Shown here in pieces: positions 9,446 to 26,248 of a stretch of DNA of 64,000 bases. The stretch comes from Clostridiales bacterium (GTDB taxonomy: Bacteria > Bacillota > Clostridia > Christensenellales > UBA3700), in assembly GCA_015055975.1 (NCBI GenBank), contig SVHF01000005.1, positions 2,676 to 66,675 of the forward strand, given 5' to 3'. Position numbers and translations under genes: made by a program. The notes beneath the pieces are model-generated. The model was not told the DNA's origin, searched no databases, and saw only the letters and a list, made by a program, of their open reading frames with translations. Position 1 is the first letter of the stretch, and the number at the start of each line of letters is the position of its first letter.

Positions 9446-9455
9446 AGGTTACGGC

Positions 9456-10223
9456 ATGAGAATATTATTAGTTGATGATGAAGAATTGCAATTATTGCGT
9501 TTGAAAGATACCGTTATAAAGGTACTATCACAAGATAATGAATATTTAATATATTCAAATCCAGTGAAAGCATATGAAGAAAACAAAGATAAAGTTATAG
9601 ATATCGCGTTTTTGGATATAGAAATGCCAGTAATGAACGGAATCCAATTGGCAAAGAAATTAAAAATAGCAAATCCGCAAGTAAATATTATATTTGTAAC
9701 CGCTTATGATGGTTATGCACTTGAAGCGCATAAAATGCACGCTTCTGGCTACATTACAAAGCCTGTCAATGAAACTTTAGTTAGAAACGAAATCGAAGGT
9801 TTAAGATATCCAGTTGCACTTCCAGAGAAGGAAGGGAATTTGTTGGAGGTTAAATGCTTTGGAAACTTTGAGGTGTTCAAGGATGGAGAACCTCTACGTT
9901 TTGCAAGAAGCAAGTCTAAAGAATTGTTCGCATATCTTATCGATAGAGAAGGAGCTGCTGTTAGCTTAAACGAATTAAACGCGATATTATGGGATGAGGA
10001 TAAAAGTTCATATTTAAGAAATTTAATAGTAGATATACAAACAACATTAAAAGAAGTTGGAGCGGAGGATGTATTCGTAAAAAGACACAGCGAATGTTTC
10101 GTAAATGTAGACAAAATTAACTGCGATGCATATGAGTACAAAAAGAACAATCCAACAGCTATTAGAATGTATCGCGGAGAGTACATGGCACAGTATTCTT
10201 GGCCAATATTCAAAAACGATTGA
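9456..10223 (+). CDS. Response regulator (REC plus winged-HTH/SARP-like output)
   Basis: VDDE, FLDIEMP, FVTAY, YITKP; then VKCFGNFEV, SKSKELFAYLIDR, YRGEYM..YSW. Confidence 0.9.
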   Translation: MRILLVDDEELQLLRLKDTVIKVLSQDNEYLIYSNPVKAYEENKDKVIDIAFLDIEMPVMNGIQLAKKLKIANPQVNIIFVTAYDGYALEAHKMHASGYITKPVNETLVRNEIEGLRYPVALPEKEGNLLEVKCFGNFEVFKDGEPLRFARSKSKELFAYLIDREGAAVSLNELNAILWDEDKSSYLRNLIVDIQTTLKEVGAEDVFVKRHSECFVNVDKINCDAYEYKKNNPTAIRMYRGEYMAQYSWPIFKND

Positions 10224-10259
10224 TTTTTTGGCATTTTACGGGGAATAGACCCCTTTAAA

Positions 10260-10277
10260 TGTTGCAGTTTTGTTGCA
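10260..10277 (+). promoter_or_regulatory. Heptamer direct repeat TGTTGCA-N4-TGTTGCA, candidate response-regulator site
   Basis: Two exact copies with 11-bp period between the regulator gene and the downstream operon. Confidence 0.5.
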
Positions 10278-10285
10278 TATGAAAG

Positions 10286-10311
10286 AGTACCATTAAAGTG
10301 GTACTTTTTTT
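10286..10311 (+). terminator. Hairpin plus T run after the two-component operon
   Basis: AGTACCA-TTAAAG-TGGTACT then TTTTTT. Confidence 0.55.
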
Positions 10312-10346
10312 ATATTACTATAAGCACGCGATATTTAGGGGTAATT

Positions 10347-10793
10347 ATGAAGATAAATGCAAGAAGTAATCGACACATTGTACTACTAGTTGTTTTGGTA
10401 AGCGTATTTGTTGCGCTATCTATTTTGGCATTAAACGCAATCCAAGTGCAAGATGAGGTATATGCAGATGGAAACGAAGCCAATTTGGTTGCCAATGAAA
10501 TGGAACAAAATGTAAGTCAAGTTAATTATGTAGCTGTGTATCAAGGGGTTGAGAGCTGGGCTGTTTCTATTATTGTTTCAGCATCAATCTTAGTGATATT
10601 AATCATAACTTACCTAATAATGTTTTTTGCGTTGAATAAGTACATTGTAGAAGACGGCAAAGTGGTTAGAGCATTTAGAGTAAGTACACACGAAGGACAA
10701 ATTCATTTGTTAACATATAAGTTTTCTATGGTTTATAGGATCCCAGAAGAAGTATATGAAACAAAACAAAAAGCAAAAGAAATAAACAATTAA
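10347..10793 (+). CDS. Small membrane protein (signal/TM, second TM, short cytoplasmic domain)
   Basis: 148 aa, two hydrophobic segments, directly upstream of the giant protein gene. Confidence 0.7.
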   Translation: MKINARSNRHIVLLVVLVSVFVALSILALNAIQVQDEVYADGNEANLVANEMEQNVSQVNYVAVYQGVESWAVSIIVSASILVILIITYLIMFFALNKYIVEDGKVVRAFRVSTHEGQIHLLTYKFSMVYRIPEEVYETKQKAKEINN

Positions 10794-10826
10794 TTGAAAT
10801 TGAGGAAATACAGAACGGAGGGCATA

Positions 10827-13800
10827 ATGAATATTAAAACAAGAAATTGGATTTTCGTCATGATACTAGCTATAGTCGTAATCGCTAGTTCATTTATGAT
10901 GATCCAAAGTATAGAAAAAGCAACAAACGATAATGTCGCTTATGCAGATGCAACTTTAAGAGGAAGCGGAACTAAAGTAGATCCATATCAAATCGGGGAT
11001 GCTGAAGAGTTAGGCGCATTTAGAGACATTATTAACGGCTTGAGCGCAGTTACTGAAAAACATGCTATTTTAACAAAGGATATTGTTTTTGATACAGAAA
11101 CAAAATGGACACCAATTGGTACAGATACTAAGCCATTCAAGGGTACATTTGATGGAAATGGATACACAATTAAAGGATTAACAATAAATGCGGATGATGG
11201 AGAAAGAGGAGGCCTTTTTGGAAATATTACAGGTGGGGCTACAGAGGATGCCGCTTCTATCATTAAAAATGTAATACTAGAAAAGAATGGTGAAATAGGA
11301 AGTATTTCAGTGTTTTCAGATTCTGGTTCCATAGTTGGTTATGCATATAATGACTATATTAAAATCATCAATTGTCATAACTATCTTCCAATTTACGCAC
11401 TATCCACAACTGGAGGAATCGTAGGTCAAGCGGGACCAAATACTACAATCGAAGAATGTAGCAATCATGGAGATATAATAGCAGTATATACATTTGAAGG
11501 TGCTCCAAGAAAGCTTGGTGGAATTGTAGGATACGCAAATGGGCTTGCGCCATTATCTGGTGACATAACTCGTAACGTAACAATTAAAAATTGCTATAAC
11601 GAAGGAAATATTACAGGGGAACCTTATAGCGATACATATATATGTCAAATGTTTGGCGGAATTGCAGGAAATGTTCAGGATTATGCTGTAATTTCAAATT
11701 GTTTTAGCTTAGGAAGTGTTACAGCTGTAATAAGGTTTGAAAAGATACAATCATTGTTTGGTTATGTTGGTGATTTAACAGGTGATAAATATACACCAGC
11801 AACAGCTGTTAGTATTTCAGAGTGTTATTATCTTGAAGGCAAAGGGACAGATGAAAAAGTTCCAGCAGAAACAGGAAGTAAAGATGCTGCATGGTTTGAA
11901 GACGAAAGCAATTTTGATTCAACAAAAGGTTGGGATTTTGATACTATCTTTGAAATGGGTGCAACAAATTACCCAGTAATTAGAACAAGTAGATTGATAA
12001 TCGGTGGACACTTAGTAGGTCCAGGGTCATATGAAAGCCCAACAACAACGGATGATTCTACTACTCCAATGTTTGAATACGATATTAAAACTAACACATT
12101 AATATTGAATAGGTTTAATTACGATCCAATAAGAGCAACTGATAAATATGAATATAGCCCATATTATGGATATAATGTTGAAGCAGCTATAGATTATGTT
12201 GGCGAAGATGATTTTACTATAACGATAGCTGACCTAATCGATATTTATAACATGTCATATAGTTCAAATACATATGATTGGTATGGCATTAGATCTACAG
12301 GAAAATTAATTATACAAAAACAAGGCGCTTTTTCTGACTACTTAACATTACTACGTATTGGCTTTGAAAGTTCTGTCGTTGGAGGAGCTGTTTATGACGG
12401 GGTAGGTCATTCTAGTTATGGTATTTATTGTGAAAAAGGAATTGAATTTAAAGGTGGCAGTATAGATATAAGGGGCGGAGATAGTGTTAATGCTTCTCGT
12501 TATACAGATGAAAGTATAGGTATCTATAGCAAAAAAGATATTATAGTAGCTGCAAATACTCTAGATTCAAAGGATTTAAGAATTAAGTTTGTAGCAAGAG
12601 GGGCTACTCAAGCAATTAAATTTGACGATGATAGTGATAAGCTAACTTCTGGATGCTCTGGTATTGCTTCACCATATTGGACGGGCATTGATGAAAAAAC
12701 AACTAATGCTGTAGTTATTAATAAAAATACGGCATATGACAATACTACGTTGGGTAAAGATGTGGATAGCTCGTTTACTCCATACAGAACAATATTCTTA
12801 TGTGGTATTCCAATTGCTTTAATGCCAGATAGTAAAGAAGTCTTTTTCGGAGACCCAATTCCAGATTACACATATACAGCAAAATATATGAATAGTAGCG
12901 TATCTACTACATTTAAGGCATTCTTGGATGAAAACTTCTACGCAAATTCAAATTATAATCCTCAAACTTCGACTGTAGGTGATAAATATATTAATATGTA
13001 TAATAAAACAGAAGGAAGCTTCAGTCATTTTGTATTTGGATATCAGGCTTCAGGTATGGACTCAGCTCAAGATTTTTATGTTGAGAATAATAGAACAGGA
13101 ACGCTTAAAGTTAAGCCGTCTTTACCTCAATATACAGAGCCTGAAGCTGTAGAAGGATTAAAGTATACTGGTCAAGCCCAAGCGTTGGTAACAGCAGGCA
13201 CAGTAAGCAGTGCTGGCGCAACAATGTACTATAGTACAGACGATGGGGAAAATTGGACAACAACTGTTTCAACAGGTACAAATGTTGGTACATATAGTGT
13301 ATGGTTTAAAATCAATGGTGGATTGAATTATTCAAATGTTGAAAAAACATTGGTTTCTAATAGTATTTCAATTGTGGCAAATGATAAAGCTGCATTAAAA
13401 GCAGCAATCGATGCAGCAAATGAATATAAGAATTCTATTGCGGATAAGTATGCAACAAGAAGAACAACACTAGAAGGAATTATCAACGACAAAGATACTA
13501 ATGTATATCAAAACGATGATGTAACTGAAGCTCAAATTGCACAAGCAATTACTGATATTGAAAATGAAGTTAAGGATGCTAAAAAAGGTATCTTTAGTGA
13601 TAGCGTTGATGCAATTGGCACTGTTACATATCCTACTTCAAAAGACGATATCGATTATGCATTAAGTGTATATGATGCATTAGATGATGATTTAAAGCAA
13701 GATACAGCTGTAGTTGCAGATAAGGCAGAGCTTGATAAAGCACAAGAAGATTACTTCAGCTCTATTATTAATGCTTTAAAACCATTAGAAGATGTAAAGC

Positions 13801-16649
13801 ATATAGATGAAGTTTTCCAAAAGATAAACGATGCTTTTAATTATTTTGGATACGAATTAGATGATACACAAAAAGGAAATGTAGCCGACGATTATGACTA
13901 TCTATTAAAAGCTTACGATAAATATATCGCAGAAGGAGTTGTAGATTTAATTAAAGATATCGGCAATGTTGAAGATGTAAAGCACACTGATGAATACAAA
14001 GAAAAGATTCAAAAGGCTAGGGATGCATACGATGATTTAACAGATGATCAAAAAGCATATGTTACAAATATTAAAGATTTAGAAGATGCTGAAGATAAAT
14101 ATGCAGCTGAAGGTGTAATCGACGAGATTAACGCAATCGGTGAAGTAGAATTGACTGATGAATCAAAAGAAAAGATTCAAAAGGCGAGAGAAACATATGA
14201 TGCTTTAACAGACGAACAAAAAGATTTAGTTGATGACGATACTTATAAAAAATTAACAGATGCAGAGGCAGAATATTATAGATTAGCAGCTGAATCTGTT
14301 AAAGACATGATTGATGCAATTGGCACTGTTAAGTATCCAACATCAAAAGATGCTATTAAAGCTGCAAGAGATGCATATGATGCTCTAACAGGTGATCAAA
14401 AAGCATTAGTTTCTGAAGAAACATATAACAAACTAGTTGCTGCAGAAAAGGAATACGATAAGCAAGAAGACGATGCAACAAGAACTATTGTTGAAGATGA
14501 AGATTCTGGCGTTGCTGTTGAAACTGATGGCGAAACAGGTATTCCAAGAGATATTGAACTAAGAGTTGAAGTAAGAACAGAAGTTTCTTCTAAAGAAGGT
14601 AAGATTGATATTGATTCAATTCAAGCAAATCTTGCAAAGACACAAAAGATTGCAAAGGTATTTGATGTTAAGTTAATTCAAATCGTTGCAGGCGAAGAAA
14701 AAGAAATTCAACCATCTGACATTAAGCCAGGAATGAAGATTAAGATTCATATGAACATTCCTCAAGGCGTAAACACAAAGGACTTAAAGGTATTGCATAT
14801 CCACGACAATGGTTCTATTGAACTAATCGAAAATGTTGCTATTGATGGCGAGGATGCAATCATTGAAGTTGATTCATTATCTCAATTCGCTTTAGTAGAA
14901 AAAACAGGACATGGATTCTGCATTGGATGGATTTTATTAATCTTTGGAATCCTTGAAATGATTTGGTTAGCTTTATATATCTTGGCAAGATTCGGATTAT
15001 GGAGCAAGTTAGAGTTTATTGCACGCAAGATTAAGACAGCAGGATTCATTAGCTTATTAGTTTCTGATGCATTATTTATCCTTGCGCTAGTTGCTATATG
15101 CTTACATGTATGCGCATTGACAATTATATTCTTTATCTTGTTACTTCTAATGAATATCGCAGTTAGATTATTGTTCTTAGAAGACGTAGGTGTAATTAAA
15201 CTACCAAAATCTAAGAAAGCTCAAGAAAAGGAAAAGGCTCATGAAAAAGCAAAAGCCGATGAAACAGCAAAGGCAAATGCAAAAGATGAGCTTGAAAGAA
15301 AGAAACTTTCAGAATATAAGCATATGAGCAAATGGGGCTTAGAAGCTTCTAAGAAGATTGCAAAAGAAGAAGATGAAAACGGTATTTTGGCTGTAGGTAT
15401 TATCCAAAACAGAAAGGGCAAAGTTTACATGTTCGATCCAAACGGATACGAAGTCACTCCAGGCGATATCGTAGAAATTACAGATTTAGCAGGAGAAAAG
15501 AAAGCTGTAGCTGTTGTAATTGGTAACCATATGGCACCAAAAGAAAGAATAGTAGACCCATTCAAGCCAATTAACTGTGTTCTATACACACAAGATGCTG
15601 CTGCAGAAAAGGAAGCAGAAGAACAATCTCGTAGAGAAGAAGAGGCTCGTATTGCGGCAGAAGAAGCAGCAAAGAAGGAAGCTGAAGAGAAAGCTAGAAT
15701 AGCGGCTGAAGAAGAGGCAAGAAGACAAGCAGAACAAAAAGCGGCCGACGAAGCAGCCCTAAAGGCTGCAGAGGATAGAGCTAAGGCTGAACAAGAAGAG
15801 AAGGCTAGAAGAGAAGCCGAGGCTCTATCTCTAAAGGAAAGTCTTGCTAAAGCAAAGGCTACAGAATCTTCAAATAAGTTCTCTAAAGCTTACATTTGTG
15901 ATTATCTAAGTAAAAAGAGCAATGTGGAAATTAATACTAGAGGTAATTTGACTTCTACTGGATTGCCACTTGCAGATACTCACTATGTGGTTGCAGAAGA
16001 TAAAAAGACATGTTTTATCTATGTTTATGAAACAGAAGGATCAGTAATTATCCTTGGTAAGATGAGTGATGAATATGCAAATACTCTAAAGCCAAATCAT
16101 AAGCAAGTACATCTATCTGCATTCCCTAAGCAAAAGGATACTTGGTATAGCTTGATCTTAGATGATTCATATACAACAGATGATGTAAACAAGATTCTAG
16201 ATGATTTAGTTAACCAAACAAAGCAAGATTTAGGATTGCCATTGGAAGAAGGTATTACTCTAAAAGAATCAATTAAACTTGCTAAAGCAACTACATCATC
16301 TCACAAGTTCACAAAAGCTTATGTATGTGATTATCTAAACACAAAAGAAAACGTAGAAGTAAACACAAGAGGTAACCTAACATCAACAGGTCTTCCACTT
16401 GCAGATACTCACTATGTTGTAAATGGAGATAAGAAAGAATGCTTCGTTTATGTATACGAAACAGAAGGCTCTATCATCTTGCTTGCAAAGATGAAGGAAG
16501 ACTACGCTAAAGAATTACAAAAGAAACATTCTCAAGTACATCTATCTGCATTCCCAAAACAAAAAGATACTTGGTATAGTTTAATCATTGACGATTCATA
16601 TTCTAAAGAAGAATTTGAAAAGATAATTGATGACTTAATTAAAAGATAA
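10827..16649 (+). CDS. Giant membrane-spanning protein: GLUG-like beta-helix, MBG-like, helical repeats, 3 TM, cytoplasmic RicT-like, coiled-coil and 2x YjbR-like domains
   Basis: Start moved to ATG 10827 (SD GGAGG); N-terminal TM; DPYQI..EEL, WTPIG, FKGTFDGNGYTIKGL; repeated (I/V)DAIGxV..ARDAYDALT helices; TM cluster near 14910-15180; duplicated 143-aa C-terminal domain. Confidence 0.85.
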   Translation: MNIKTRNWIFVMILAIVVIASSFMMIQSIEKATNDNVAYADATLRGSGTKVDPYQIGDAEELGAFRDIINGLSAVTEKHAILTKDIVFDTETKWTPIGTDTKPFKGTFDGNGYTIKGLTINADDGERGGLFGNITGGATEDAASIIKNVILEKNGEIGSISVFSDSGSIVGYAYNDYIKIINCHNYLPIYALSTTGGIVGQAGPNTTIEECSNHGDIIAVYTFEGAPRKLGGIVGYANGLAPLSGDITRNVTIKNCYNEGNITGEPYSDTYICQMFGGIAGNVQDYAVISNCFSLGSVTAVIRFEKIQSLFGYVGDLTGDKYTPATAVSISECYYLEGKGTDEKVPAETGSKDAAWFEDESNFDSTKGWDFDTIFEMGATNYPVIRTSRLIIGGHLVGPGSYESPTTTDDSTTPMFEYDIKTNTLILNRFNYDPIRATDKYEYSPYYGYNVEAAIDYVGEDDFTITIADLIDIYNMSYSSNTYDWYGIRSTGKLIIQKQGAFSDYLTLLRIGFESSVVGGAVYDGVGHSSYGIYCEKGIEFKGGSIDIRGGDSVNASRYTDESIGIYSKKDIIVAANTLDSKDLRIKFVARGATQAIKFDDDSDKLTSGCSGIASPYWTGIDEKTTNAVVINKNTAYDNTTLGKDVDSSFTPYRTIFLCGIPIALMPDSKEVFFGDPIPDYTYTAKYMNSSVSTTFKAFLDENFYANSNYNPQTSTVGDKYINMYNKTEGSFSHFVFGYQASGMDSAQDFYVENNRTGTLKVKPSLPQYTEPEAVEGLKYTGQAQALVTAGTVSSAGATMYYSTDDGENWTTTVSTGTNVGTYSVWFKINGGLNYSNVEKTLVSNSISIVANDKAALKAAIDAANEYKNSIADKYATRRTTLEGIINDKDTNVYQNDDVTEAQIAQAITDIENEVKDAKKGIFSDSVDAIGTVTYPTSKDDIDYALSVYDALDDDLKQDTAVVADKAELDKAQEDYFSSIINALKPLEDVKHIDEVFQKINDAFNYFGYELDDTQKGNVADDYDYLLKAYDKYIAEGVVDLIKDIGNVEDVKHTDEYKEKIQKARDAYDDLTDDQKAYVTNIKDLEDAEDKYAAEGVIDEINAIGEVELTDESKEKIQKARETYDALTDEQKDLVDDDTYKKLTDAEAEYYRLAAESVKDMIDAIGTVKYPTSKDAIKAARDAYDALTGDQKALVSEETYNKLVAAEKEYDKQEDDATRTIVEDEDSGVAVETDGETGIPRDIELRVEVRTEVSSKEGKIDIDSIQANLAKTQKIAKVFDVKLIQIVAGEEKEIQPSDIKPGMKIKIHMNIPQGVNTKDLKVLHIHDNGSIELIENVAIDGEDAIIEVDSLSQFALVEKTGHGFCIGWILLIFGILEMIWLALYILARFGLWSKLEFIARKIKTAGFISLLVSDALFILALVAICLHVCALTIIFFILLLLMNIAVRLLFLEDVGVIKLPKSKKAQEKEKAHEKAKADETAKANAKDELERKKLSEYKHMSKWGLEASKKIAKEEDENGILAVGIIQNRKGKVYMFDPNGYEVTPGDIVEITDLAGEKKAVAVVIGNHMAPKERIVDPFKPINCVLYTQDAAAEKEAEEQSRREEEARIAAEEAAKKEAEEKARIAAEEEARRQAEQKAADEAALKAAEDRAKAEQEEKARREAEALSLKESLAKAKATESSNKFSKAYICDYLSKKSNVEINTRGNLTSTGLPLADTHYVVAEDKKTCFIYVYETEGSVIILGKMSDEYANTLKPNHKQVHLSAFPKQKDTWYSLILDDSYTTDDVNKILDDLVNQTKQDLGLPLEEGITLKESIKLAKATTSSHKFTKAYVCDYLNTKENVEVNTRGNLTSTGLPLADTHYVVNGDKKECFVYVYETEGSIILLAKMKEDYAKELQKKHSQVHLSAFPKQKDTWYSLIIDDSYSKEEFEKIIDDLIKR
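15825..16646 (+). repeat. Tandem duplicated ~143-aa C-terminal domain
   Basis: Copies begin at 15825 (LSLKESLAKAKAT) and 16254 (ITLKESIKLAKAT); shared NTRGNLTSTGLPLADTHYVV and HLSAFPKQKDTWYSLI.DDSY. Confidence 0.9.
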
Positions 16650-16673
16650 CACAAAGTTATTTTTATTGGGCAA

Positions 16674-16709
16674 GGGAGCTGCTTTGAGTTAGGGCAGCTC
16701 CCCTATTTT
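16674..16709 (+). terminator. Intrinsic terminator of the giant-protein gene
   Basis: GGGAGCTGC-N11-GCAGCTCCC then CTATTTT. Confidence 0.8.
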
Positions 16710-18299
16710 ATTAGAGATAGAAAGTAAAAAAAATCCTCGACAATATTGAAACATCGAGGTATTCGGCGGAAGGGCGGTGTCCACTTGCGCACTAATGTCT
16801 TTAAAGACATTTCCTCCCGAATCAAGCTTTAGTTTTTCTGTGAATTCTTCTAATTCTTTTTTAGTAAGTTTATTGCCTCTTGGTTTTGTATCATCAGGCC
16901 CATTAAATACAATTACTATTTCGTTGTCATAAACAATAATCACTCTAATAAATGTTCTGATTAATTTTAATCTTGTTTCAGGAGTATCGGTATCAACATC
17001 TAGAATTCGATTGAAAAACTCTAGCACAGATGCTTTAGATATTATTTGTTCAGATGCGCTTTCTTCTTTTGAAATAGCAACATCTATCTTTTCTAATTCT
17101 TCTTCTAGTTCTATTAACTTTGTTTGTGTAGATTTTGTTACAACACCAAGAGATATAGCATTTAACATATTATCTATTGCGTTTTGTGTGGTTTTCTTTC
17201 TTGTGTTTAGCATAGATAATACGATGTTTTCTTTCTTTTGTTTTAAAGAATATTCATATAAGGCATTTGCTAATTTTTCGATTATGTTTTTGTTTTTTAA
17301 TGAATTATACAAAACATCTGCAACTAAATCTTCAAGCTTTTCTTTTGGGATAGATTTGTTATGGCATCCTTTATGATAAGGCGCTGTTGATCTACAAGAA
17401 TAATAATGGTATTTTCTTCCTGTGCAGCTAGTGCTAGTTGCTCCTATTAATGGGGAATTACAATTGCCACAATATACCAATCCATTAAGCAAATAATCAT
17501 AGATGTTGTATCTATCTCCATGAGCTTCTACATTTCTTTCGTGAATAGCATTAACTGTATTCCATAATGAATCATCAATAATCTTTGGATATATATTAGT
17601 GTAAACAGTACCATCATTTTCCCATTTGCCATTGTATTTGCTATTGCATAAGGTTTTATAAATCATCTTCTTATAGAATGGTTTGCCAGTCTTTGTTCTA
17701 TATCCTTGAGCATTTAATTCATTTGCGATATGCTCAGCGGTATATCCATCTTTATACATTTCAAACATCTTCTTAACAACTTGCGCTTCAAGCGGATTAA
17801 TGACGCATTTTTGATTAACAATGTCATAACCATATAATTGCGCTCCGCCAGTAAATAATCCTTTGCTATAAGACAATTTCAAGCCACGTTTAACCTTTTG
17901 AGAAAGCTCAGCAGAGTAGTATTGGGCAAAACCTTCTAAAACAGATTCGAAAATAATAGCTTCTGGAGTATCTGGAATGTTTTCGGTTGCAGATATAACT
18001 TTTATGCCATTTTGTTTTAGAGTATGCTTGTGTACTGCTGAATCATATTTGTCTCTAGAAAATCTATCTAACTTATATACTAAGATATAATCCCATTGTT
18101 TACGAACACATTCTTTCATCATAAGTTGAAAAGAAGGTCTAGCATCATTTGTTCCAGATTTTGCACGATCAATATATTCTTTTACAACAGTGATGTCATT
18201 TCGTTTAGCATATTCATAGCAAACACGTAATTGACCTTCAATAGATTGTTCTGTTTGAGAACTACAAGAGAATCTTGCGTATATAACAGCTTTCTTCAT
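16689..18299 (-). CDS. Large serine recombinase (integrase)
   Basis: AVIYARFS (catalytic Ser), SIEGQ, RPSFQ, LVYKLDRFSR; recombinase domain; Zn ribbon VYCGNC...YYSC...C; coiled coil. Confidence 0.95.
   Translation of the reverse strand: MKKAVIYARFSCSSQTEQSIEGQLRVCYEYAKRNDITVVKEYIDRAKSGTNDARPSFQLMMKECVRKQWDYILVYKLDRFSRDKYDSAVHKHTLKQNGIKVISATENIPDTPEAIIFESVLEGFAQYYSAELSQKVKRGLKLSYSKGLFTGGAQLYGYDIVNQKCVINPLEAQVVKKMFEMYKDGYTAEHIANELNAQGYRTKTGKPFYKKMIYKTLCNSKYNGKWENDGTVYTNIYPKIIDDSLWNTVNAIHERNVEAHGDRYNIYDYLLNGLVYCGNCNSPLIGATSTSCTGRKYHYYSCRSTAPYHKGCHNKSIPKEKLEDLVADVLYNSLKNKNIIEKLANALYEYSLKQKKENIVLSMLNTRKKTTQNAIDNMLNAISLGVVTKSTQTKLIELEEELEKIDVAISKEESASEQIISKASVLEFFNRILDVDTDTPETRLKLIRTFIRVIIVYDNEIVIVFNGPDDTKPRGNKLTKKELEEFTEKLKLDSGGNVFKDISAQVDTALPPNTSMFQYCRGFFLLSISNKIGELP
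16726..16759 (-). terminator. Probable native tRNA-Ser terminator, now separated from the tRNA by the element
   Basis: Minus strand CCTCGA-TGTTTCAATATTG-TCGAGG-A-T8, 5 nt beyond the att core on the host side. Confidence 0.65.
16765..16794. other. Recombinase-proximal att junction
   Basis: Core GGCGGA (16765-16770) shared with the tRNA-Ser 3' end; element-side arm carries GCGCACTA (16787-16794), the inverse of TAGTGCGC at the other junction. Confidence 0.75.
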
Positions 18300-18330
18300 T
18301 TATTATTCATTTCTCCTTAGTATGTAATAT

Positions 18331-18611
18331 TTGTCTTTCGACACCTTCGAAAAATCAAAAAGGAATGAATTGGTCAAGGGGTAAAAGAGACTGAACCTTT
18401 ACCAAAAAGGGAATTTTTGATACCCACTTTTCGAAAGACAATTTGATGCTAGCATGTGAAAGGGTGAGATTGCGTGGTAGTAAATGGGGAGTAGAGGTGA
18501 GTAGAATAGTGGTGGATAGCGATAAGTGCACTAAAAGTATACCTAAATCTCACCTTTACCTCACCTTTGTACCCATTTGTCTCACTTTTACTCCCCCGAA
18601 AACTCACCTTT
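18331..18611. repeat. Structured intergenic region with nested inverted repeats and CTCACCTTT iteron-like repeats
   Basis: TTGTCTTTCGA (18331)/TCGAAAGACAA (18431) with inner arms; CTCAC(C/T)TTT at 18549, 18560, 18581, 18603; inverted GGTGAG copies near 18463 and 18496. Confidence 0.7.
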
Positions 18612-18665
18612 AAAACCTATATATTAAATATGGCAATTGACGTTGCTAAAAATAATAGGAGGTCA

Positions 18666-19433
18666 ATGATGGGTGGTAATGCTATACAAATAGTTGAAAG
18701 GCAAAAGAAAAAAGAAGAAAGACGTAAGAAATGGCTTGAATATATTCTTCAAGAATCTATGCATGCTGCAAAAAGTATTGGGGATGTAGATTTAAGAATA
18801 TTATGTGTAAAGACAATGCTTATTGAAAAAGGTATGAAAGATATAGATGCAGATGTAGCAGCTAAATGTGCTATATATAAGCAAGAAAAAGAAAGAACTA
18901 AAAGACGGTTAACTTTTTGTAAACATAGATATTTAGAAGAGTTCAATTATTATGCAACATTTACTTATGATGAAAACAAGTTAAGTGAGAAAAGATTTAA
19001 AAGAAAGTTATTAAGAAAACTAAAGGGATTTTCAAAGCGAAAAGGATGGAAATATTTAGGAGTATGGGAAAGAACAAAAGAATCTAAAAGATTGTATTTC
19101 TATGGTCTTGTATATATTCCAGATAAAAAGCTTGTTGGAAAATTCATAAAAGTAAACGATTTTAATTTCAAAGCGCATAAGCCTAAAGAGGTCATACAAA
19201 ACACATATTTCAATAAAAAGTTTGGACGATGTACATTTGAAGAAATAAACGCTCAATATTTGCCTAAGACTATGGTAAGAATGGTAAAGCATTTAATGGA
19301 TGCAAAAGATAGCCCTGTATCTTCAAAGAATATCCCAAGCTCAACATTAAATGATCTAAGCTATACAACATTTAAATGTTTAAAAGAAGGGGATGAATAT
19401 ATAGGGCAATTAGAAAAGCGTTTTAAATGCTAA
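18666..19433 (+). CDS. Rolling-circle Rep (HUH)-like protein with degenerate catalytic motifs
   Basis: SD AGGAGG before ATG 18666; YYATFTYD (motif I), KYLGVWER..KRLYFYG (motif II with H to Y), NTYFNKKFGR, MVRMVKHL where YxxKY is expected. Confidence 0.65.
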   Translation: MMGGNAIQIVERQKKKEERRKKWLEYILQESMHAAKSIGDVDLRILCVKTMLIEKGMKDIDADVAAKCAIYKQEKERTKRRLTFCKHRYLEEFNYYATFTYDENKLSEKRFKRKLLRKLKGFSKRKGWKYLGVWERTKESKRLYFYGLVYIPDKKLVGKFIKVNDFNFKAHKPKEVIQNTYFNKKFGRCTFEEINAQYLPKTMVRMVKHLMDAKDSPVSSKNIPSSTLNDLSYTTFKCLKEGDEYIGQLEKRFKC

Positions 19434-19450
19434 ATATTTAAATATATATT

Positions 19451-19969
19451 CTCGTATCAAGACAAGCGACACGCCCATCACCACTTGGAGGTAAAAATGA
19501 AATTTAAAGAGAAACTTATTAAAGCAAAAAAATGGTTAAAAGAACAACAAAAAGAATATGATGAAGGATTACTTCGAAGATACAATCGAGGCTATGTTGA
19601 AAGTAGGAACATGAATTGGTTTGAATTACATAGAGCAAAGAAACTTGCAAGAAGAGAATTCAGACAACAACTAAAAGTCTTATTTAAAGATATGGCAAAA
19701 GATATTAAAGACGTATGGAAACATCGGAAAGGTAAATAACTACTTGTATCAAGACTAGCACGCGCACTAAATGATTTTGCGAAATCCCGACTAAATATTT
19801 AATCGACTCAACCCATACCTAAAACAAAAAGAATAGATATAGAGCGCGAAAGTGGAAAAAAGGCTTTTCTACTCGCGTCTCCTACACCCAGGGCGAGCGA
19901 GAAATTTAGCGGGACGCGTGCTTGTCGACGACGAGCGAAGCGAGGCGCTTGTATCAAGACAAGCACACG
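19451..19969. repeat. Three copies of GTATCAAGAC in hairpins (minus strand TCTTGATAC), candidate double-strand origins
   Basis: Exact 10-mer at 19454, 19746, 19951; third copy in perfect stem GCTTGT-N6-ACAAGC; further hairpins at 19842-19880 and GTGCTTGTC/GACAAGCAC. Confidence 0.75.
19497..19739 (+). CDS. Small basic hypothetical protein (80 aa)
   Basis: SD GGAGGT before ATG 19497; K/R-rich helical sequence lying between repeat copies 1 and 2. Confidence 0.65.
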   Translation: MKFKEKLIKAKKWLKEQQKEYDEGLLRRYNRGYVESRNMNWFELHRAKKLARREFRQQLKVLFKDMAKDIKDVWKHRKGK

Positions 19970-20049
19970 TCTCATTACCATTTGATTTAGATATCGTAAA
20001 AATCGAGACTCATCGATGCTAATTGTTGGTTGGGTTTGTAAACACCATG

Positions 20050-20124
20050 TAAGTGTATAAAATATACAGTTATTGTTGACTTGAAATAAATAGAGTGTTA
20101 ATATAAGTGTATAAAATATACAGT
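20050..20124 (+). promoter_or_regulatory. Promoter flanked by a 21-bp direct repeat operator
   Basis: TAAGTGTATAAAATATACAGT at 20050-20070 and 20104-20124, each with palindrome TGTATA-AAA-TATACA; TTGACT-17-TAATAT between them. Confidence 0.75.
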
Positions 20125-20133
20125 AGGTGTAAT

Positions 20134-21282
20134 ATGCTAAAGAAACTTGTAATTAAAAATGTTAATTCAATTAAAAAATGTGAAATAGATTTTGTGAAAG
20201 GCAATTATAAATTTGCAGAAGAAAATGTGCATAATGGAGTTGTTAATCCTATAGCTATTTATGGTCATAATGGTAGCGGTAAATCTGCTGTTATGAATGC
20301 AATAGGTCATTTTGTTGCATTAATGTCATATCCTGCTGAGTCGTTAGCTCCTTTCACTGTTAATCAAATATTGTTTGATGAATATACCTTAGAAGTGGCA
20401 AAAAATTCAAGCAAGATAATTGCTAGTATTCAATTGCTATTTGATATTGACCACGATGAATATGAGTATTATATCGAGACAAGTGCGCTTGGTTATATTA
20501 CAAATGAATATTTGAAAAAGAATGGCATATGTTATTTTGAAAGAGATAAAGAAAAATTTAGTTATGAAGATAAAGAGTCAAAGATTTCTAATATTTCAAG
20601 ATTAATTCCTCAATTAAGATCATTGGCAAGTTCTGAGATTAATGATGCGACTATACAAGTTGTGTATGCATACATTAGTTCAATTACATTTGTAAACTTA
20701 CCATATATTAATAGAGGCGCTTTTGTAACTTCAAAATTGTTTTTAAATACAAACATTAATGATTTGTTAGTACAAAAATCTAAGACAATTAGAGATATGT
20801 TATCAGAAGACAATTGCTTCCCAAGGTATACAATTGAAAAGAACAATAAAATTTTTCCAAACGGTTTGCAAGCATCGCAATATAGCCTTGTGTTAGAAGA
20901 TAAAGATTTTAAAAAGAAATTGCCTTTAGAGATGATATCTGTCGGCATGAAGAATTTAAGCATATTGCTTTCTTTGTTACTTTCTGTTCCAAAGAATGGT
21001 GTAGTCTTTATTGATGAGGTTGACGCAGCTTTGCATCCTTCAACTTTAAATATGTTCTTAAAAATTATTAGGAAAAACAGTATACAAGTAGTTTTTACAA
21101 TACATAATACAAATGCATTGCAATCTATGAGGCCAGATCAAGTGTATTTTGCGAAATGGGCAAAAGGCTTTTCTAATTATTATAGATTATCAAAGATATA
21201 CCCAAATATTCGAGAAATTAATAATATAGAAAAGATGTACTTATCTTCAACTTTTGATGAGGAAATGAAAGAAGATGAGTAA
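20134..21282 (+). CDS. ABC-type ATPase (AAA_21/AAA_15-like), AbiL/RloA-like component
   Basis: Walker A GHNGSGKS, signature ISVGMK, Walker B FIDEVDAALHP, H-loop FTIHN; start at MLKKLVIKN. Confidence 0.85.
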   Translation: MLKKLVIKNVNSIKKCEIDFVKGNYKFAEENVHNGVVNPIAIYGHNGSGKSAVMNAIGHFVALMSYPAESLAPFTVNQILFDEYTLEVAKNSSKIIASIQLLFDIDHDEYEYYIETSALGYITNEYLKKNGICYFERDKEKFSYEDKESKISNISRLIPQLRSLASSEINDATIQVVYAYISSITFVNLPYINRGAFVTSKLFLNTNINDLLVQKSKTIRDMLSEDNCFPRYTIEKNNKIFPNGLQASQYSLVLEDKDFKKKLPLEMISVGMKNLSILLSLLLSVPKNGVVFIDEVDAALHPSTLNMFLKIIRKNSIQVVFTIHNTNALQSMRPDQVYFAKWAKGFSNYYRLSKIYPNIREINNIEKMYLSSTFDEEMKEDE

Positions 21283-22054
21283 AAACTATTTGCTTATAGT
21301 TGAGGGAAAGAAAACGGAGCCCAATGTATTTGAATGCGCATTTGAGCGGTATGGTTTTCGCGTTGAAAAAGGTAAAGAGCCGTTAAACATAACTGATGTT
21401 GGGCAATTTGAAAAAATTGAGTTTTCTTTAAATCAAAACAATGTGGTAATTATTCAAGGACCTAGAAATAGAATACATGATTTTTTATTACTTATAGAAA
21501 ATGAAGATGTAGTTGTAGAAAAGTTGTTTAAGTATCAATATGCGTTCTTTAATTCAATTTTCTTAATATATGATGTTGATCATAATGATTGTGAAGATAT
21601 TGAAAAAATGTTTAATTATTTTAACGATGAAACGACGTCTGGTTTATTACTATTAAGTTCTCCTTGTATTGAGGTATTAGAAGACTATAATAGAGAAAGG
21701 CGTGAAGAGACTTATCATAAAATAGAAGAATATAAAAAAGATATAAATATATATTGGAATGGGCTTGCGCAAGATAATCTATTAGCTAATTTTGAAAGCA
21801 CGATGTTACATTTTTTAGAAAAGAATCAAAAAGATTTTGCTGAAAACAACATAATGGAACATCCAAGACTTATTATAGATAAAATCAATAAGTTAAATGA
21901 GAGGGTTAATTGTTCGGATAAAGAAAAGTCTTATGTAAGATATAGATATTTTTCTACAGTAGTATATGTCGCAATAGCAAATGCTAATGGATTGACAAAA
22001 GAAATTGATAACTATTCAAAGGCATGTGAGTTCTTTGAGAACAAAAAGCAATAA
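21275..22054 (+). CDS. RloB-like TOPRIM-domain protein
   Basis: LIVEGKKTE, IFLIYDVD (DxD), SSPCIE motif; overlaps the ATPase stop by 8 nt. Confidence 0.7.
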   Translation: MSKNYLLIVEGKKTEPNVFECAFERYGFRVEKGKEPLNITDVGQFEKIEFSLNQNNVVIIQGPRNRIHDFLLLIENEDVVVEKLFKYQYAFFNSIFLIYDVDHNDCEDIEKMFNYFNDETTSGLLLLSSPCIEVLEDYNRERREETYHKIEEYKKDINIYWNGLAQDNLLANFESTMLHFLEKNQKDFAENNIMEHPRLIIDKINKLNERVNCSDKEKSYVRYRYFSTVVYVAIANANGLTKEIDNYSKACEFFENKKQ

Positions 22055-22176
22055 AATTTTTGTTTGTATAATTTAATCTTTTGACTTTTCGGAGAAGGTT
22101 CTTGTTGATTTTTTTTAGATTAATATTGAATTTATATCTGGATCTTTGACATAATAATATTAAAGGAACTAAACAT

Positions 22177-22584
22177 ATGACTATAGGTGAAAAGATTAAA
22201 CAATTGCGTATATCAAAAGGGTTATCTGTTTCTGAATTTGCACAACAAATCGAAGTAACAGAGCGGACTATTTATAGATGGGAAAGCAATAAAAATATCC
22301 CATCTAATTCATATTTAGCGAAAATAGCAATTTCCTGCGATGTCAAGATAGATTATTTCAAAAGTGAAAAAGCAAAATTGTCTATCGTCAAGCTATTATC
22401 TATAATCTCAATAGTTATTCTTTCTTTATTAACATTAATATCGTTAATAGGGTTTATAGCATATTTGGCCACAGGGCAAAGAGTTTTATTTGGTCTATCT
22501 TTTGATTTTATTATAGCAATGCTAATATTTTCTTTTAGCCTTTTATCTTTTGCAATAGTGTTTTTGTCTTTAAATAAATACTAA
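22177..22584 (+). CDS. XRE-family HTH regulator with two C-terminal TM helices
   Basis: IGEKIKQLRISKGLS..EFAQQIEVTERTIYRWESNKNIP followed by two hydrophobic segments. Confidence 0.88.
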   Translation: MTIGEKIKQLRISKGLSVSEFAQQIEVTERTIYRWESNKNIPSNSYLAKIAISCDVKIDYFKSEKAKLSIVKLLSIISIVILSLLTLISLIGFIAYLATGQRVLFGLSFDFIIAMLIFSFSLLSFAIVFLSLNKY

Positions 22585-22596
22585 TTGTCTTAAAAA

Positions 22597-22644
22597 GTCA
22601 TGAAATGTCACGAAATGTCAGTAGATAAATTATATATAATGTCA
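22597..22644 (+). promoter_or_regulatory. Phased (T)GTCA repeats upstream of the cargo operon
   Basis: GTCA at 22597, 22607, 22617 (10-bp period, GAAATGTCA twice) and AATGTCA at 22638. Confidence 0.5.
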
Positions 22645-22672
22645 TAATCTTTTAGTAGGAGGTTATGATATT

Positions 22673-23398
22673 ATGAAAAATAAATTATTTATTATTTTGA
22701 TGCTTATTTTGACGATTTGTGTTTCAACAGCATATGTAACATCAATTGCTTATGCGGAAAGCACAAATAGTGAAGAGGCTTTTAGTAGTGACCCAACAAT
22801 AGTACATCTTTCAGATGATTATCAAGGATGGAATAATTCGTCGCGTTGGTATTCTCAGCCATTATGGTATTGCGATAATAATTCATATTCGCCAACATCA
22901 CATGATTACAAATATTGCGAATATAATACTTCTGTAATAAGCAATTTGCCGTACTATAAAGTAATGGCAACTGATAGTTATGAAACTATAGAATTGTCGC
23001 AAGTTGAGACTCTTTCGTCTCCGGATAATAGTGAAACAAACTCTGGTGTATTTGTTACATTCCAAAGCAATAACATTTCATATGCTTCGGGAATATATTT
23101 GAATGGAGATGAATACATATTAGGAGCATTAACTTCAGAATTGCAAATATTCGGCTCTACGACAAAGGTTGGAGCTGGAAAAGTGTTATATAGACAAGGG
23201 GCTTTAGTGAACGGCGGTACTTGGGGAGGTTGGTCATACGCTGATTTAGGGACTAATACTTCAATTTATTTTCCAGCTAATGTTGCTGTTCAATTGGCTG
23301 TTATTTATGAGGTTAAAGAAGAAAAATTACATTGGTATCAAAGTCATAAATATTATAGATGCTTGGGATACTATAGATTTAACACGGGAGTTGTTTAA
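22673..23398 (+). CDS. Secreted hypothetical protein (Tyr/Trp/Ser rich)
   Basis: SD AGGAGG, signal peptide ending AYA-E, no recognised domain. Confidence 0.75.
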   Translation: MKNKLFIILMLILTICVSTAYVTSIAYAESTNSEEAFSSDPTIVHLSDDYQGWNNSSRWYSQPLWYCDNNSYSPTSHDYKYCEYNTSVISNLPYYKVMATDSYETIELSQVETLSSPDNSETNSGVFVTFQSNNISYASGIYLNGDEYILGALTSELQIFGSTTKVGAGKVLYRQGALVNGGTWGGWSYADLGTNTSIYFPANVAVQLAVIYEVKEEKLHWYQSHKYYRCLGYYRFNTGVV

Positions 23399-24312
23399 TG
23401 TTAGAATTGATAAAACAAAACAAGAATAAACTTACTTGCATCCTAATAGCATTTGTCACAATTATAGCAATTGTTCTTTTGTTATTAGGCAGTCAAACTT
23501 ATACAACGAATTCAGATGATGATTCATCTATTGATTCATATAAAGTCCTATATGAAGAAGCGAAAATGAATTATGAGTGCAAAATTGGAATAAGAGAGTG
23601 GCCTGCCGGTGTTATGCAAGATCCAAAAATGACAGCTAAAGATTATGAAGCGAAAATGAATTATTATGAAGAATTAATGGATAATAATATTTCTAAATCA
23701 GATTATTTTAATATAGATAATCCTCTGCAAAATAAAGAAACAATGAGGCATGCAACAATAGGATATATGATGTTATATATCATGAGCTTTTTTGTTATAA
23801 TTGCAGCGCTTAGCATTCCTTATGTTTTTGCTAATGACGATAAGCATAGCAAATTAGTAGCATTAGGAGCTTCATATTGTAGTGTATTTGTTTTGAATTT
23901 AATAGTGTTCATCTTTGGTATTCCATTTGTGTTAAATAATATGTCAGCGCCAGTAATTCAGCAGTTTGGAATAAATACAATTACAACAACGATATCTATA
24001 TATTATTTTGTTAGAGCATTGGGATTGTTGTGTATATCTCTCTTAATGTGCACAATAGGAAGTATTATTGCGAATGCAAGAAAGATGAGCTTCGCTAAAT
24101 ATTTATCTGTATTTATGACATATTTCATTTTCTGTATTCCATTTGTTTTAGAGTTGGGATTAAAGTCTAACAATTATGCAATTATTCCTATTACGCATAT
24201 ACAATTTGCAAACAATATAATAAATAATCCGATTTATTGGATTGGCGTTATTATATGCATTATGTTGGGAATATGTTATTATGCATGTTTGAGGTTTAGA
24301 AAGCAATTATAA
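23398..24312 (+). CDS. Multi-pass membrane protein, ABC-2 permease-like topology
   Basis: TM1, ~85-aa extracellular loop, five further TM; TAATG-coupled to the upstream gene. Confidence 0.65.
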   Translation: MLELIKQNKNKLTCILIAFVTIIAIVLLLLGSQTYTTNSDDDSSIDSYKVLYEEAKMNYECKIGIREWPAGVMQDPKMTAKDYEAKMNYYEELMDNNISKSDYFNIDNPLQNKETMRHATIGYMMLYIMSFFVIIAALSIPYVFANDDKHSKLVALGASYCSVFVLNLIVFIFGIPFVLNNMSAPVIQQFGINTITTTISIYYFVRALGLLCISLLMCTIGSIIANARKMSFAKYLSVFMTYFIFCIPFVLELGLKSNNYAIIPITHIQFANNIINNPIYWIGVIICIMLGICYYACLRFRKQL

Positions 24313-24390
24313 ATATGTTTAGCTATATTAAATCGGAGGTGGTGCTAAAAATAATAAGAATCAACAACATAATAGATTAGGAGGTTATTT

Positions 24391-25758
24391 ATGAATAAAA
24401 GTAGACAAAAAATCAAATTAGTTGCAATCACTAGCATTTTGCTCTTAGCATTAATCGCAGTAGCAGGAGCGACTTTAATATTAGGCATAACAATGCAAAA
24501 GGCTCAGCATAACATAGAATCGTTTAATTCGGACCCAATTGCTTCATATGAGAAAACATACTGTGAAGAGTTAATGTCATATAAATTGGATCAAAATTAT
24601 ATCTGTACTTTAACAAAAGAAGTATATGATTTTTCTGGCAATGCAAATTATATGCTTTGTTATGATGAAAATTTAAATTGGTATGCGATAATAAATAGAA
24701 CAAGCGGTGATGTTTTAGAACGAAAAGAATCAAAATCCCCATATAATGATTATTTGGAATACAAGTGTTTCTATTTGGGATATGGTAATTATTACTTTTT
24801 AGAAGGCAATAGGATTGTTTCTATTATGGATACAACTACTATATTTGAAGCAGATGATATCCCACAAGAGCTTATTGAAGGATCTATAAATCTAAACAAC
24901 AAAGCGATCACCGATGGAACTTTTAAATCTAGGGAAGAGATAGAAGAATTTGTAAAAGAGCAAGAAAAATCTATTGTTTCGTTATGTGGAGCATCAAATA
25001 GAAATAATACACATTATTGTGACAATCTATTGTATTTTTTAGAAATGTGCAACGCTTTAGTGCCAAAACGATTTGTAATCTCGACTGAACCATATTATGT
25101 TACGATTGGCTGTGGGACTTTTACAAGATATAATGGGGCTCAATATGATGATATTTTGTTTGCAAAAAATACAACAGGAACATGTGGAATAGTATCTTCT
25201 GCAATGCTATTACAGTATTATGAAAGAAATGGGATATTAAACGTTATTCCAAATAGTATATATAACAATAGTATAATTAGTTTTCCTTCTGGTTCAACAG
25301 TGTCAAGTGTTGGCTTAGAGTATACCGTTGCCCAAAAAGTTCATAATGCAATAAATGCTCATCATAGTGAGATTTTGGGAGGTTCTACTTATGTATCGGC
25401 AAAAGATGCAATAAATGGGTATTTCTCAACATACGGGATAACTGGAGTTAGTGCATCGTCAAACGTTTTAGATGCTGGCATGAAGTCCACAATTAACAAT
25501 GGAGATCCAGTAGTAGTATTTATAAGTGGAGGAACAGGATATAGCGCTTATATTGATTCTAGTAGCAATAATTATTATTCGGAGTATATTAGCTCACATG
25601 CAATGTTAGCATTTGGGTACACAACTGGGTTATTCGGACTGGTTGATGAGTATATTTGCAATAAAGGATGGCCAGAAGCGTATAATAATTACTATACATA
25701 TGGCGTAACATACATTTCGCACATTTCTATCGTGGGTAATGTAAAATTATTATATTAA
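24391..25758 (+). CDS. Secreted or membrane-anchored papain-fold cysteine peptidase (C10/C39-like)
   Basis: N-terminal TM, prodomain-like region, N..GTCGIVSSAMLLQY (Cys), SHAMLAFGY (His), ICNKGW (as in streptopain-like NxGW). Confidence 0.7.
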   Translation: MNKSRQKIKLVAITSILLLALIAVAGATLILGITMQKAQHNIESFNSDPIASYEKTYCEELMSYKLDQNYICTLTKEVYDFSGNANYMLCYDENLNWYAIINRTSGDVLERKESKSPYNDYLEYKCFYLGYGNYYFLEGNRIVSIMDTTTIFEADDIPQELIEGSINLNNKAITDGTFKSREEIEEFVKEQEKSIVSLCGASNRNNTHYCDNLLYFLEMCNALVPKRFVISTEPYYVTIGCGTFTRYNGAQYDDILFAKNTTGTCGIVSSAMLLQYYERNGILNVIPNSIYNNSIISFPSGSTVSSVGLEYTVAQKVHNAINAHHSEILGGSTYVSAKDAINGYFSTYGITGVSASSNVLDAGMKSTINNGDPVVVFISGGTGYSAYIDSSSNNYYSEYISSHAMLAFGYTTGLFGLVDEYICNKGWPEAYNNYYTYGVTYISHISIVGNVKLLY

Positions 25759-25768
25759 GGAGAACGCT

Positions 25769-26248
25769 ATGAGGAAGCATAAATATATAATAATTGCAGT
25801 CGTTGCCATTGTTGTTTTGATTGTTATTGCGTTTCTTGTTAATTTGTGTTTATTTAATGCGCTTAAAAACAATAAAGTAAACATCCTTGAACAGCATGGT
25901 GTGAAAACTACAGAAATCCTAAAACTTGAAAAATTAGAGCATTCGCCGGAGCAGCAGTATTTGAAATATACAACATTTTGCTCTAAAACAAAATTTATGT
26001 ATGGAATATATTCGTTGGGATATAAGGTACATTGTTTATATGATGATGGTAACAAACAGATTGAATATGACCTATATGAAGTAGATTGGGCTAGAACGTA
26101 TGCAGAAGATGAATCATTTTATATTTTTTCGGCAGAAACCTTGTTTGAAACAAAGCATATTTTAGTATTAGATAAAAGCGACAAGGATAATTTGGAACTA
26201 GTTTGGCGAGATTTGGGGTTGTTAATTGATTATCAATTTGCCCTATAG
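25769..26248 (+). CDS. Single-pass membrane hypothetical protein
   Basis: SD AAGGAG, N-terminal TM, 10 nt after the peptidase stop. Confidence 0.7.
   Translation: MRKHKYIIIAVVAIVVLIVIAFLVNLCLFNALKNNKVNILEQHGVKTTEILKLEKLEHSPEQQYLKYTTFCSKTKFMYGIYSLGYKVHCLYDDGNKQIEYDLYEVDWARTYAEDESFYIFSAETLFETKHILVLDKSDKDNLELVWRDLGLLIDYQFAL

Follow-up and report, generated by a model that had tools for sequence, protein, structure and literature searches.

Can a site-specific recombinase rewrite the end of its own gene by the reaction that it catalyses? This question is raised by a recombinase gene in a 64,000-nucleotide stretch of DNA, hereafter the window, from a Clostridiales bacterium of the Christensenellales lineage UBA3700 (assembly GCA_015055975.1, contig SVHF01000005.1, positions 2,676 to 66,675 of the forward strand). 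The gene lies at one end of an integrated element of about 9.8 kb whose other end abuts a serine tRNA gene. We found that the predicted crossover lies within the open reading frame (ORF) of the integrase, and that the excised and the integrated forms of the element would encode different C-termini. An earlier note on this DNA had proposed such an exchange, together with a switch in which the integrated gene runs through a transcription terminator before any stop codon. Our analysis supports this proposal in part: the tail swap appears to be real and general, and the terminator or non-stop switch appears to be incidental.

The recombinase and its attachment sites

The enzyme is a large serine recombinase by its domains and by its fold. 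Pfam placed a Resolvase catalytic domain at residues 4-146 (PF00239, E 9e-28), followed by Recombinase (PF07508, 6e-18, residues 171-255) and Zn_ribbon_recom (PF13408, 6e-14, residues 270-330). In an alignment of 37 homologues, Y7, R9, S11, Q15, R45, and R79 fell in invariant columns, R9 and S11 being residues of the catalytic site, and the zinc-ribbon cysteines C277, C280, C302, and C312 were conserved. The AlphaFold2 model of the integrated form has long helices at residues 319-416. A Foldseek search with the homologue P0003 matched the integrase structures of SPbeta, Bxb1, phiC31, and LI (E 3e-19 to 1e-14), and the recombinase also matched the A118 and TP901-1 chains in sequence. Two more large serine recombinases, with about 42% identity to the window enzyme, are encoded in the same 1.6-Mb genome (C33:70651-72063 and C8:2375-3805).

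The hexamer GGCGGA occurs only twice between positions 16000 and 27500, once within the recombinase gene and once at the end of tRNA-Ser(GCU) (Table 1), and this 6-bp identity block is the single repeat between the element ends. The tRNA-Ser(GCU) and tRNA-Glu(CUC) genes lie on the strand of the recombinase, about 8.3 kb upstream of it. ARAGORN called tRNA-Ser as an intact gene that ends at the junction, its CCA now being supplied across the core. Along the minus strand, with a slash for the junction, the tRNA side reads tRNA-Ser...CTCTCCGCC / A-CAAGGGTCTCAAGCGCAC..., with the element next, and the recombinase side reads recombinase...GCCCTTCCGCC / G-AATACCTCGATG..., with host DNA next. The junction of the circle is predicted as ...GCCCTTCCGCC-ACAAGGGTCTC... 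and the empty site as tRNA...CTCTCCGCC-GAATACCTCGATG....

When the two ends are joined at the core, the reading frame is kept and the protein continues as ...VDTALPP-QGSQAHYWLVYKNSFALRLIFEK-TAG, with a total of 535 amino acids. In the integrated form, residues 1-512 are encoded by the element, and residues 513-536, the tail NTSMFQYCRGFFLLSISNKIGELP, are 24 residues read from host DNA. Thus, the ORF does cross the core and can be joined in frame to a new tail, as the earlier note had described, with all the features within a few bases of where it had placed them. In the reconstructed attP, the core is flanked by an 8-bp perfect inverted repeat (TAGTGCGC...GCGCACTA), altogether forming an imperfect palindrome.

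The same design in relatives

Homologues at 42-58% identity are abundant in metagenome-assembled genomes of gut Clostridia and Christensenellales, and more distant ones (34-43% identity) are found in IMG/VR contigs. The earlier note had named homologues that end before the PP dipeptide as evidence that would speak against its proposal; we looked for this, and the second proline was invariant in 37 of the 37 aligned homologues. In all 47 genome-derived relatives with a proline there, its codon is the CCA of the tRNA, preceded by GCA, CCG, CCA, and similar codons. Because of this CCA codon, the conserved part of the recombinase ends in a copy of the tRNA acceptor end. Past it, the proteins of the relatives diverge completely, except for those with a single recurring type of tail, and their integrated tails are arbitrary, with lengths from 0 to more than 90 residues. 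The window differs from these 47 relatives in having CCG as the crossover proline codon, and its reconstructed empty site would encode tRNA...CCG, not CCA as in the relatives. Either the recipient had no encoded A at this position, or the junk tail mutated after the insertion.

We then joined the recombinase gene at its CCA to the sequence that follows the CCA of a same-strand tRNA located 4.7-9.9 kb upstream in 11 relatives (L029, L032, L038, L045, L046, L049, L050, L053, L057, L061, and L078). The tRNAs involved were Val, Leu (eight relatives), and Arg (two relatives). All 11 joins were in frame and gave a tail of 28-30 amino acids of the form ..KTN..FVLFF..DYFG.K.K followed by a stop, for example NKNKTNLDENSKFVLFFTRDYFGLKIKR. 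The chromosomal tails of the same 11 genes are unrelated and have 0-41 amino acids. Since the conserved module follows different tRNA species in different hosts, it must travel with the element, and we consider this the strongest evidence for the anatomy proposed for the window. That anatomy is more than chance, because the same join restores a conserved tail in these 11 further relatives. Together with the in-frame join in the window, this argues that the C-terminus of the recombinase is indeed exchanged by its own recombination.

The conserved tail

The earlier note had suggested aligning homologues to see which of the two tails is conserved, and it is the excised-form one. The free tail carries a motif of four hydrophobic residues, a turn, and F-[A/G]-[I/L/V]-x-h-x-h, which is conserved at the protein level across the clade. 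For 42 tails from different subclades, phage-like contigs without the CCA codon included, we aligned the sequences on the F-[A/G]-[I/L/V] core and found a mean entropy of 1.47, 1.28, and 1.78 bits at codon positions 1, 2, and 3, respectively. The core F and G/A were kept through synonymous changes. We take the entropy pattern and these synonymous changes as the signature of a translated, selected peptide. A motif matrix derived from 28 tails, none of them from the subgroup of the window, gave 10.1 bits for the free tail of the window and 0.0 for the integrated one; internal sequences, used as the null, had their 99th percentile at 6.1. The motif exceeded this percentile in 24 of 118 full-length database homologues, and the integrated tail of the 536-residue form had no homologue among 118 relatives. 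Exact scans for the tail module in viral contigs gave no matches.

At the structural level, we compared AlphaFold2 models of the two kinds of tail. P0003, which has a free-type tail and is 58% identical to the window enzyme (best local BLASTP alignment), presented strands at residues 495-499, 513-520, and 523-529, with a predicted local distance difference test score (pLDDT) of 56-74 in the tail. Residues 493-536 of the integrated protein of the window had no secondary structure and a pLDDT of 32-43. The free tail is therefore predicted to be a beta-hairpin and the integrated tail to be disordered.

Terminators at the two ends

The earlier note had also claimed that the integrated ORF passes a terminator before reaching any stop. 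For this locus the claim stands: the host-side hairpin has an 8-bp stem (-9.8 kcal/mol, z -2.8, with no shuffled sequence as stable), and the ORF passes both the hairpin and its U8, the T8 run lying 34 nt before the TAA. As a conserved design it does not stand, since a terminator is passed in only 16 of 33 relatives. These were integrated relatives with a terminator-like site ending at most 50 nt from the CCA, for which we recorded whether an in-frame stop came before the U tract. The recombinase frame stopped before or inside the hairpin in 17 of them and continued past it in 16; the corresponding counts were 13 and 20 for the first control frame, and 8 and 25 for the second. Compared with the two control frames, there was no enrichment for running past the terminator, and the trend, if any, was the opposite. 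Thus, an ORF that passes a terminator-like site before its stop is not a conserved feature of these genes.

Ten of the 33 relatives stop exactly three codons past the CCA (L011, L015, L023, L027, L030, L035, L058, L078, L086, and L107), and several of their host flanks contain a TAAATCGAAC-like motif there, possibly a half-site on the host side or what remains of an earlier element.

In one subgroup (L045, L046, L053, L057, L061, and others), a hairpin and T run (AAAACGAAC..GTTCGTTTTGTTTTTT, read as KTN..FVLFF) is found within the first 50 nt or so after the CCA of the upstream tRNA. There, hairpin and T run lie inside the coding sequence (CDS) of the free-form tail, about 12 codons before its stop, and P' arm, tRNA terminator, and coding sequence appear to share one stretch of DNA. 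Because the free-form tail of this subgroup holds a hairpin and T run, the equation of a terminator inside the ORF with an integrated, switched-off gene fails for the family as a whole. Running through a terminator is in fact expected of a gene that reads outwards and ends up immediately before a tRNA terminator. From these comparisons the passage looks accidental, neither a designed switch nor a control principle of the family, and in the window it may further lower the expression of the integrated form.

The host-side hairpin with its T8 probably once terminated the tRNA-Glu/tRNA-Ser operon; considering the surroundings of the site, it may alternatively mark where an older island ended. The element brings its own terminator, which ends the tRNA operon when integrated and the recombinase gene when excised, and the TAG of the free form (26529-26531) falls within the 5' stem of its hairpin. 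The terminator of the convergent gene, when read on the minus strand, folds with -20.3 kcal/mol and has no U tract. A long hairpin in the tail-coding RNA (-17.7 kcal/mol) was considered and dropped; by eye, it is apparently not conserved in L171.

Proposed mechanism and alternative explanations

We propose that the full enzyme is encoded by the excised circle alone, and that the integrated copy specifies a tail-less variant that is weaker or differently biased; on the evidence presented here, this is probably the case. In the circle, the ORF would be extended by 23 codons from the other end of the element, with its stop in the element terminator. Upon integration, the conserved tail would be replaced by 24 unrelated residues read from the host, and the element terminator would take over the tRNA operon. 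Since the tail is selected and yet can be made from the circle only, it would act in the free state, and its simplest role would be to make attP x attB integration after transfer efficient or to give it the correct direction. The chromosomal gene would produce a tail-less enzyme with an arbitrary, probably disordered end, and a weaker or biased form would stabilise the inserted state, by analogy with IntP/IntX of phage Mx8. Because elements must still excise to spread, the tail would not be essential for attL x attR recombination. The passage of the old tRNA terminator would be a by-product of inserting directly upstream of it. We consider it unlikely that the integration state by itself sets the direction, with the tail as a removable module for attP x attB and the tail-less enzyme, its directionality relaxed or reversed, performing attL x attR with little or no separate recombination directionality factor (RDF).

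Several observations weigh against the proposal that the tail is a functional part of the free enzyme lost on integration. The reconstructed attB, searched in 40 relatives, was matched only in its tRNA part, with the host flank found in none, and exact-match scans of metagenome contigs with the host flank and the element flank gave no matches. The AlphaFold2 confidence in the tail is only moderate. The tail-module DNA also follows the recombinase genes in L171-L173, where by eye it is about 85% identical to that of the window over about 100 nt, with recombinases only 48-58% identical, and the L173 tail is truncated by a 1-nt indel. Conservation in the window subgroup may thus be partly at the DNA level (P' half-site and terminator) or due to module exchange. 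In the other subgroup, KTN...FVLFF coincides with the hairpin and T run, so part of the tail conservation reflects the P' half-site and the tRNA terminator. Moreover, P0008 of L171, a recombinase with a free-type tail, adjoins chromosomal genes syntenic with contig C27 of the genome of the window; since P0008 is chromosomal, a free-type tail does not prove an excised state. Finally, in the same-genus genome G005, tRNA-Ser(GCU) and its CCA are followed by a 66-nt terminator and then directly by the homologue of the window from 8061 downwards, so that the window has 18.5 kb extra rather than 9.8 kb. For this reason, the flank read by the recombinase may belong to an older island.

Besides, P0003, P0008, and P0010 were considered as plain free forms and rejected, their contigs being too short to tell (L172 and L173) or chromosomal (L171).

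Some of these points would be explained if the exchange were a neutral by-product, in which a compact element must bring a tRNA terminator, attP overlaps the gene end, tail conservation is a DNA constraint, and both forms of the enzyme are equal. This is possible, although rather unlikely. The high conservation of the module DNA in the window and L171-L173 despite the lower protein identity, the frame-shifted L173 tail, the position of KTN..FVLFF on a hairpin and T run in the second subgroup, and integrated tails of 0 to more than 90 residues, evidently tolerated, are all consistent with it. However, a DNA constraint does not account for third codon positions being the most variable (1.78 vs. 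1.47 and 1.28 bits), nor for F-[A/G]-[I/L/V] persisting through synonymous codon changes and in clades whose DNA is unrelated, including the IMG/VR contigs without the CCA codon. The conserved part (DYFG.K.K, or SFALRLIF here) is also located 40-70 nt from the crossover, outside a serine-integrase half-site of about 25-27 bp (phiC31 structure paper), and the AlphaFold2 hairpin is ordered for the free tail only.

A selected off-switch, in which the integrated transcript ends at the old tRNA terminator, ribosomes stall, and transfer-messenger RNA (tmRNA) tags the product for degradation, seems quite improbable to us. The genome does have a tmRNA gene (tag ANKSEFALAA), the ORF in the window passes a hairpin of -9.8 kcal/mol plus U8 34 nt ahead of its TAA, and 16 of the 33 integrated relatives pass a terminator-like site as well. 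Against it, the other 17 stop before or inside the hairpin, ten of them three codons past the CCA, while the control frames pass the hairpin more often (20/33 and 25/33), and a large subgroup has a hairpin and T run 12 codons before the stop of its free-form tail. Terminators inside ORFs are commonly suppressed by translating ribosomes, and a fully silenced integrated recombinase could not excise the element. Least credible of all, and to us very improbable, is a coincidental 6-bp repeat with the true ends elsewhere and the 536-residue form as the native one. The repeat is indeed just 6 bp, an empty site with this host flank was not found in the 40 relatives or the metagenome contigs, and G005 lacks 18.5 kb here instead of 9.8 kb. 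But coincidence would have to produce an in-frame join to a motif-bearing tail that ends in a terminator, a geometry that recurs in 11 relatives, a junction codon that in all 47 relatives is the CCA of the tRNA, an 8-bp perfect inverted repeat around the core of the reconstructed attP, and a 536-residue form whose tail has no homologue among 118 relatives.

The element and its surroundings

The element abuts tRNA-Ser, leaves the gene intact, and supplies it with a new terminator, as a tRNA island does. Its cargo is summarised in Table 1. The AAA_21 ATPase and the overlapping RloB-like ORF are a candidate AbiL-type defence pair, and the neighbours of the C39-like peptidase had no domain match. 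No conjugation domains were detected in the nine cargo ORFs scanned.

Table 1. Coordinates of the features discussed, in window positions (strand given where it applies).
Feature	Position	Strand	Remarks
Terminator of the convergent 1951-aa gene	16674-16702	+	recombinase TAA (16689-16691) in its loop
Large serine recombinase gene, integrated form	16689-18299	-	536 aa; ORF list and Pfam
Host-side hairpin (16735-16759) and T8 (16726-16733)	16726-16759	-	within the integrated recombinase ORF
Recombinase-side junction core GGCGGA (minus strand TCCGCC)	16765-16770		overlaps the PP codons CCG CCG (16764-16769)
Integrated element body, about 9.8 kb	16771-26601		bounded by the two cores
P-arm half of the 8-bp perfect inverted repeat, TAGTGCGC	16787-16794	-	within the recombinase coding sequence
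Element cargo	18567-26248		Rep-like ORF (PF23343, weak), AAA_21 ATPase with overlapping RloB-like ORF, helix-turn-helix (HTH) protein, C39-like peptidase
Element-borne terminator, hairpin and T run	26503-26535	-	-12.3 kcal/mol, z -4.1
Excised-form tail CDS, QGSQAHYWLVYKNSFALRLIFEK, 23 codons	26532-26600	-	first ~30 nt are the P' arm; silent as protein when integrated
P'-arm half of the 8-bp perfect inverted repeat, GCGCACTA	26581-26588	-	
tRNA-Ser(GCU), integration target	26601-26691	-	ARAGORN
tRNA-side junction core GGCGGA	26602-26607		in the acceptor 3' strand and CCA end of tRNA-Ser
tRNA-Glu(CUC), upstream of tRNA-Ser	26755-26829	-	ARAGORN

The 18.5 kb that the window has in excess of G005 consist of the 9.8-kb element and an 8.7-kb block (8062-16764) with the 1951-aa gene. 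This block contains four plus-strand ORFs (8171-9445, 9456-10223, 10347-10793, and 10794-16649, the last one encoding the 1951 residues) and may stem from an older island inserted at this tRNA hot spot. In two further genomes of the same genus, the other tail type directly follows the CCA of tRNA-Ser(GCU): L007 of G001 (VANCTHPNDKKLGCVYFFSTEYFGIVIKL followed by a stop) and L006 of G006. Because tail modules follow the CCA in G001 and G006, their tRNA-Ser(GCU) site is occupied by related elements or their remnants. The contigs of G002, G004, and G006 break 50-150 nt from tRNA-Ser(GCU).

Elsewhere in the genome of the window, contig C27 (23793-23914) contains a tRNA-Ser(CGA) with, right after its CCA, TTAGGGTCTCAAGCGCACTACTGGTTAGTATA, which is the module of window positions 26569-26600. 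This contig has no recombinase gene, and the genes beyond the module are syntenic with the DNA downstream of P0008 in L171. Among 401 genomes of the order, a pattern search retrieved the tail module from this genome only, twice, with one additional weak match. We read the C27 and L171 copies as probable remnants or tandem accretion at tRNA-Ser sites, because the empty tRNA-Ser sites of the genus have unrelated trailers and the order's 400 other genomes lack the module. A module that is simply the native trailer of tRNA-Ser was ruled out on both of these grounds, and also by the equivalent module of the second subgroup, which follows seven tRNA species in different hosts.

Comparison with known systems

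Serine integrases are prized for genome engineering since they are simple and directional, and structural work is actively addressing what sets and reverses their direction. The clade described here is large and unstudied, is found in gut Clostridia and related phage-like contigs, and appears to have the gene of its enzyme rewritten by its own reaction. If the two forms differ in activity or direction, they would be a self-contained sensor of the integration state that needs no repressor and possibly no RDF, within a new integrase family aimed at universally conserved tRNA ends. If the directionality reading were true, the beta-hairpin tail would be a built-in removable module in a large clade of serine integrases of tRNA 3' ends. 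And if the forms do not differ, the clade would still be a clear case of serine integrases using tRNA genes, a target that Islander (2014) described as not known for them (PMC4383910).

Among known serine integrases, SPbeta SprA, Bxb1, phiC31, Listeria A118/LI, and TP901-1 share with the window enzyme a resolvase catalytic domain, a recombinase domain, and a zinc ribbon with a long coiled-coil insertion. A short core identity and an imperfectly palindromic attP, the latter reconstructed for the window, may be further points in common. The extreme C-terminus of SprA reportedly affects directionality, to go by the title of a reference cited in PMC11722253. In the literature searched, these integrases are not described with attP in their own gene, and their targets are protein-coding genes or intergenic, whereas the element of the window targets a tRNA gene at its CCA end and has its crossover in the last conserved codons of the enzyme, with a conserved tail of about 23-30 amino acids beyond. 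The literature searched contained no serine-integrase clade with a tRNA 3' end as target, CCA as the last conserved codon, and a selected tail past the crossover. Compared with the islands of tyrosine integrases, just 6 bp are shared here, without a duplicated tRNA fragment.

Attachment sites inside integrase genes are known from other elements. In streptococcal integrative and conjugative elements (ICEs) inserted in rumA, the att site lies within the serine integrase gene, so that the integrated and excised forms differ in length and C-terminus, and the authors raised the possibility of a functional difference between them (Ambroset et al. 2016, PMC4701971). Those ICEs are conjugative, target the rumA coding sequence, and reciprocally exchange the 3' ends of two protein genes with a change of frame. 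The window, by contrast, has a small island in which conjugation genes were not detected; it is inserted at the 3' end of a tRNA gene, and its exchange preserves the reading frame and involves a conserved free tail. With tRNA-Ser(GCU) as target and no conjugation domains in the nine cargo ORFs scanned, it is not a member of the rumA ICEs.

Among tyrosine recombinases, the archaeal integrases of SSV type have the attachment site within the integrase ORF, and integration alters the gene (PMC7253208, PMC4383910); there the gene is split in two, whereas the window enzyme loses a short tail only. Phage Mx8 also has its attP inside the int coding sequence; upon integration the gene acquires a different 3' end, and the form encoded by the prophage has altered activity (PMC6070905). 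In this form, 13 residues replace the 112 C-terminal ones and the enzyme is reportedly less active (PMC4701971). Mx8 differs from the window in recombinase superfamily and chemistry and in its much larger replaced segment, and the consequence of the exchange is experimental for Mx8 and inferred for the window. Mx8 IntP/IntX and the rumA-targeting serine integrases of streptococcal ICEs are the closest precedents for a recombinase that exchanges its own C-terminus.

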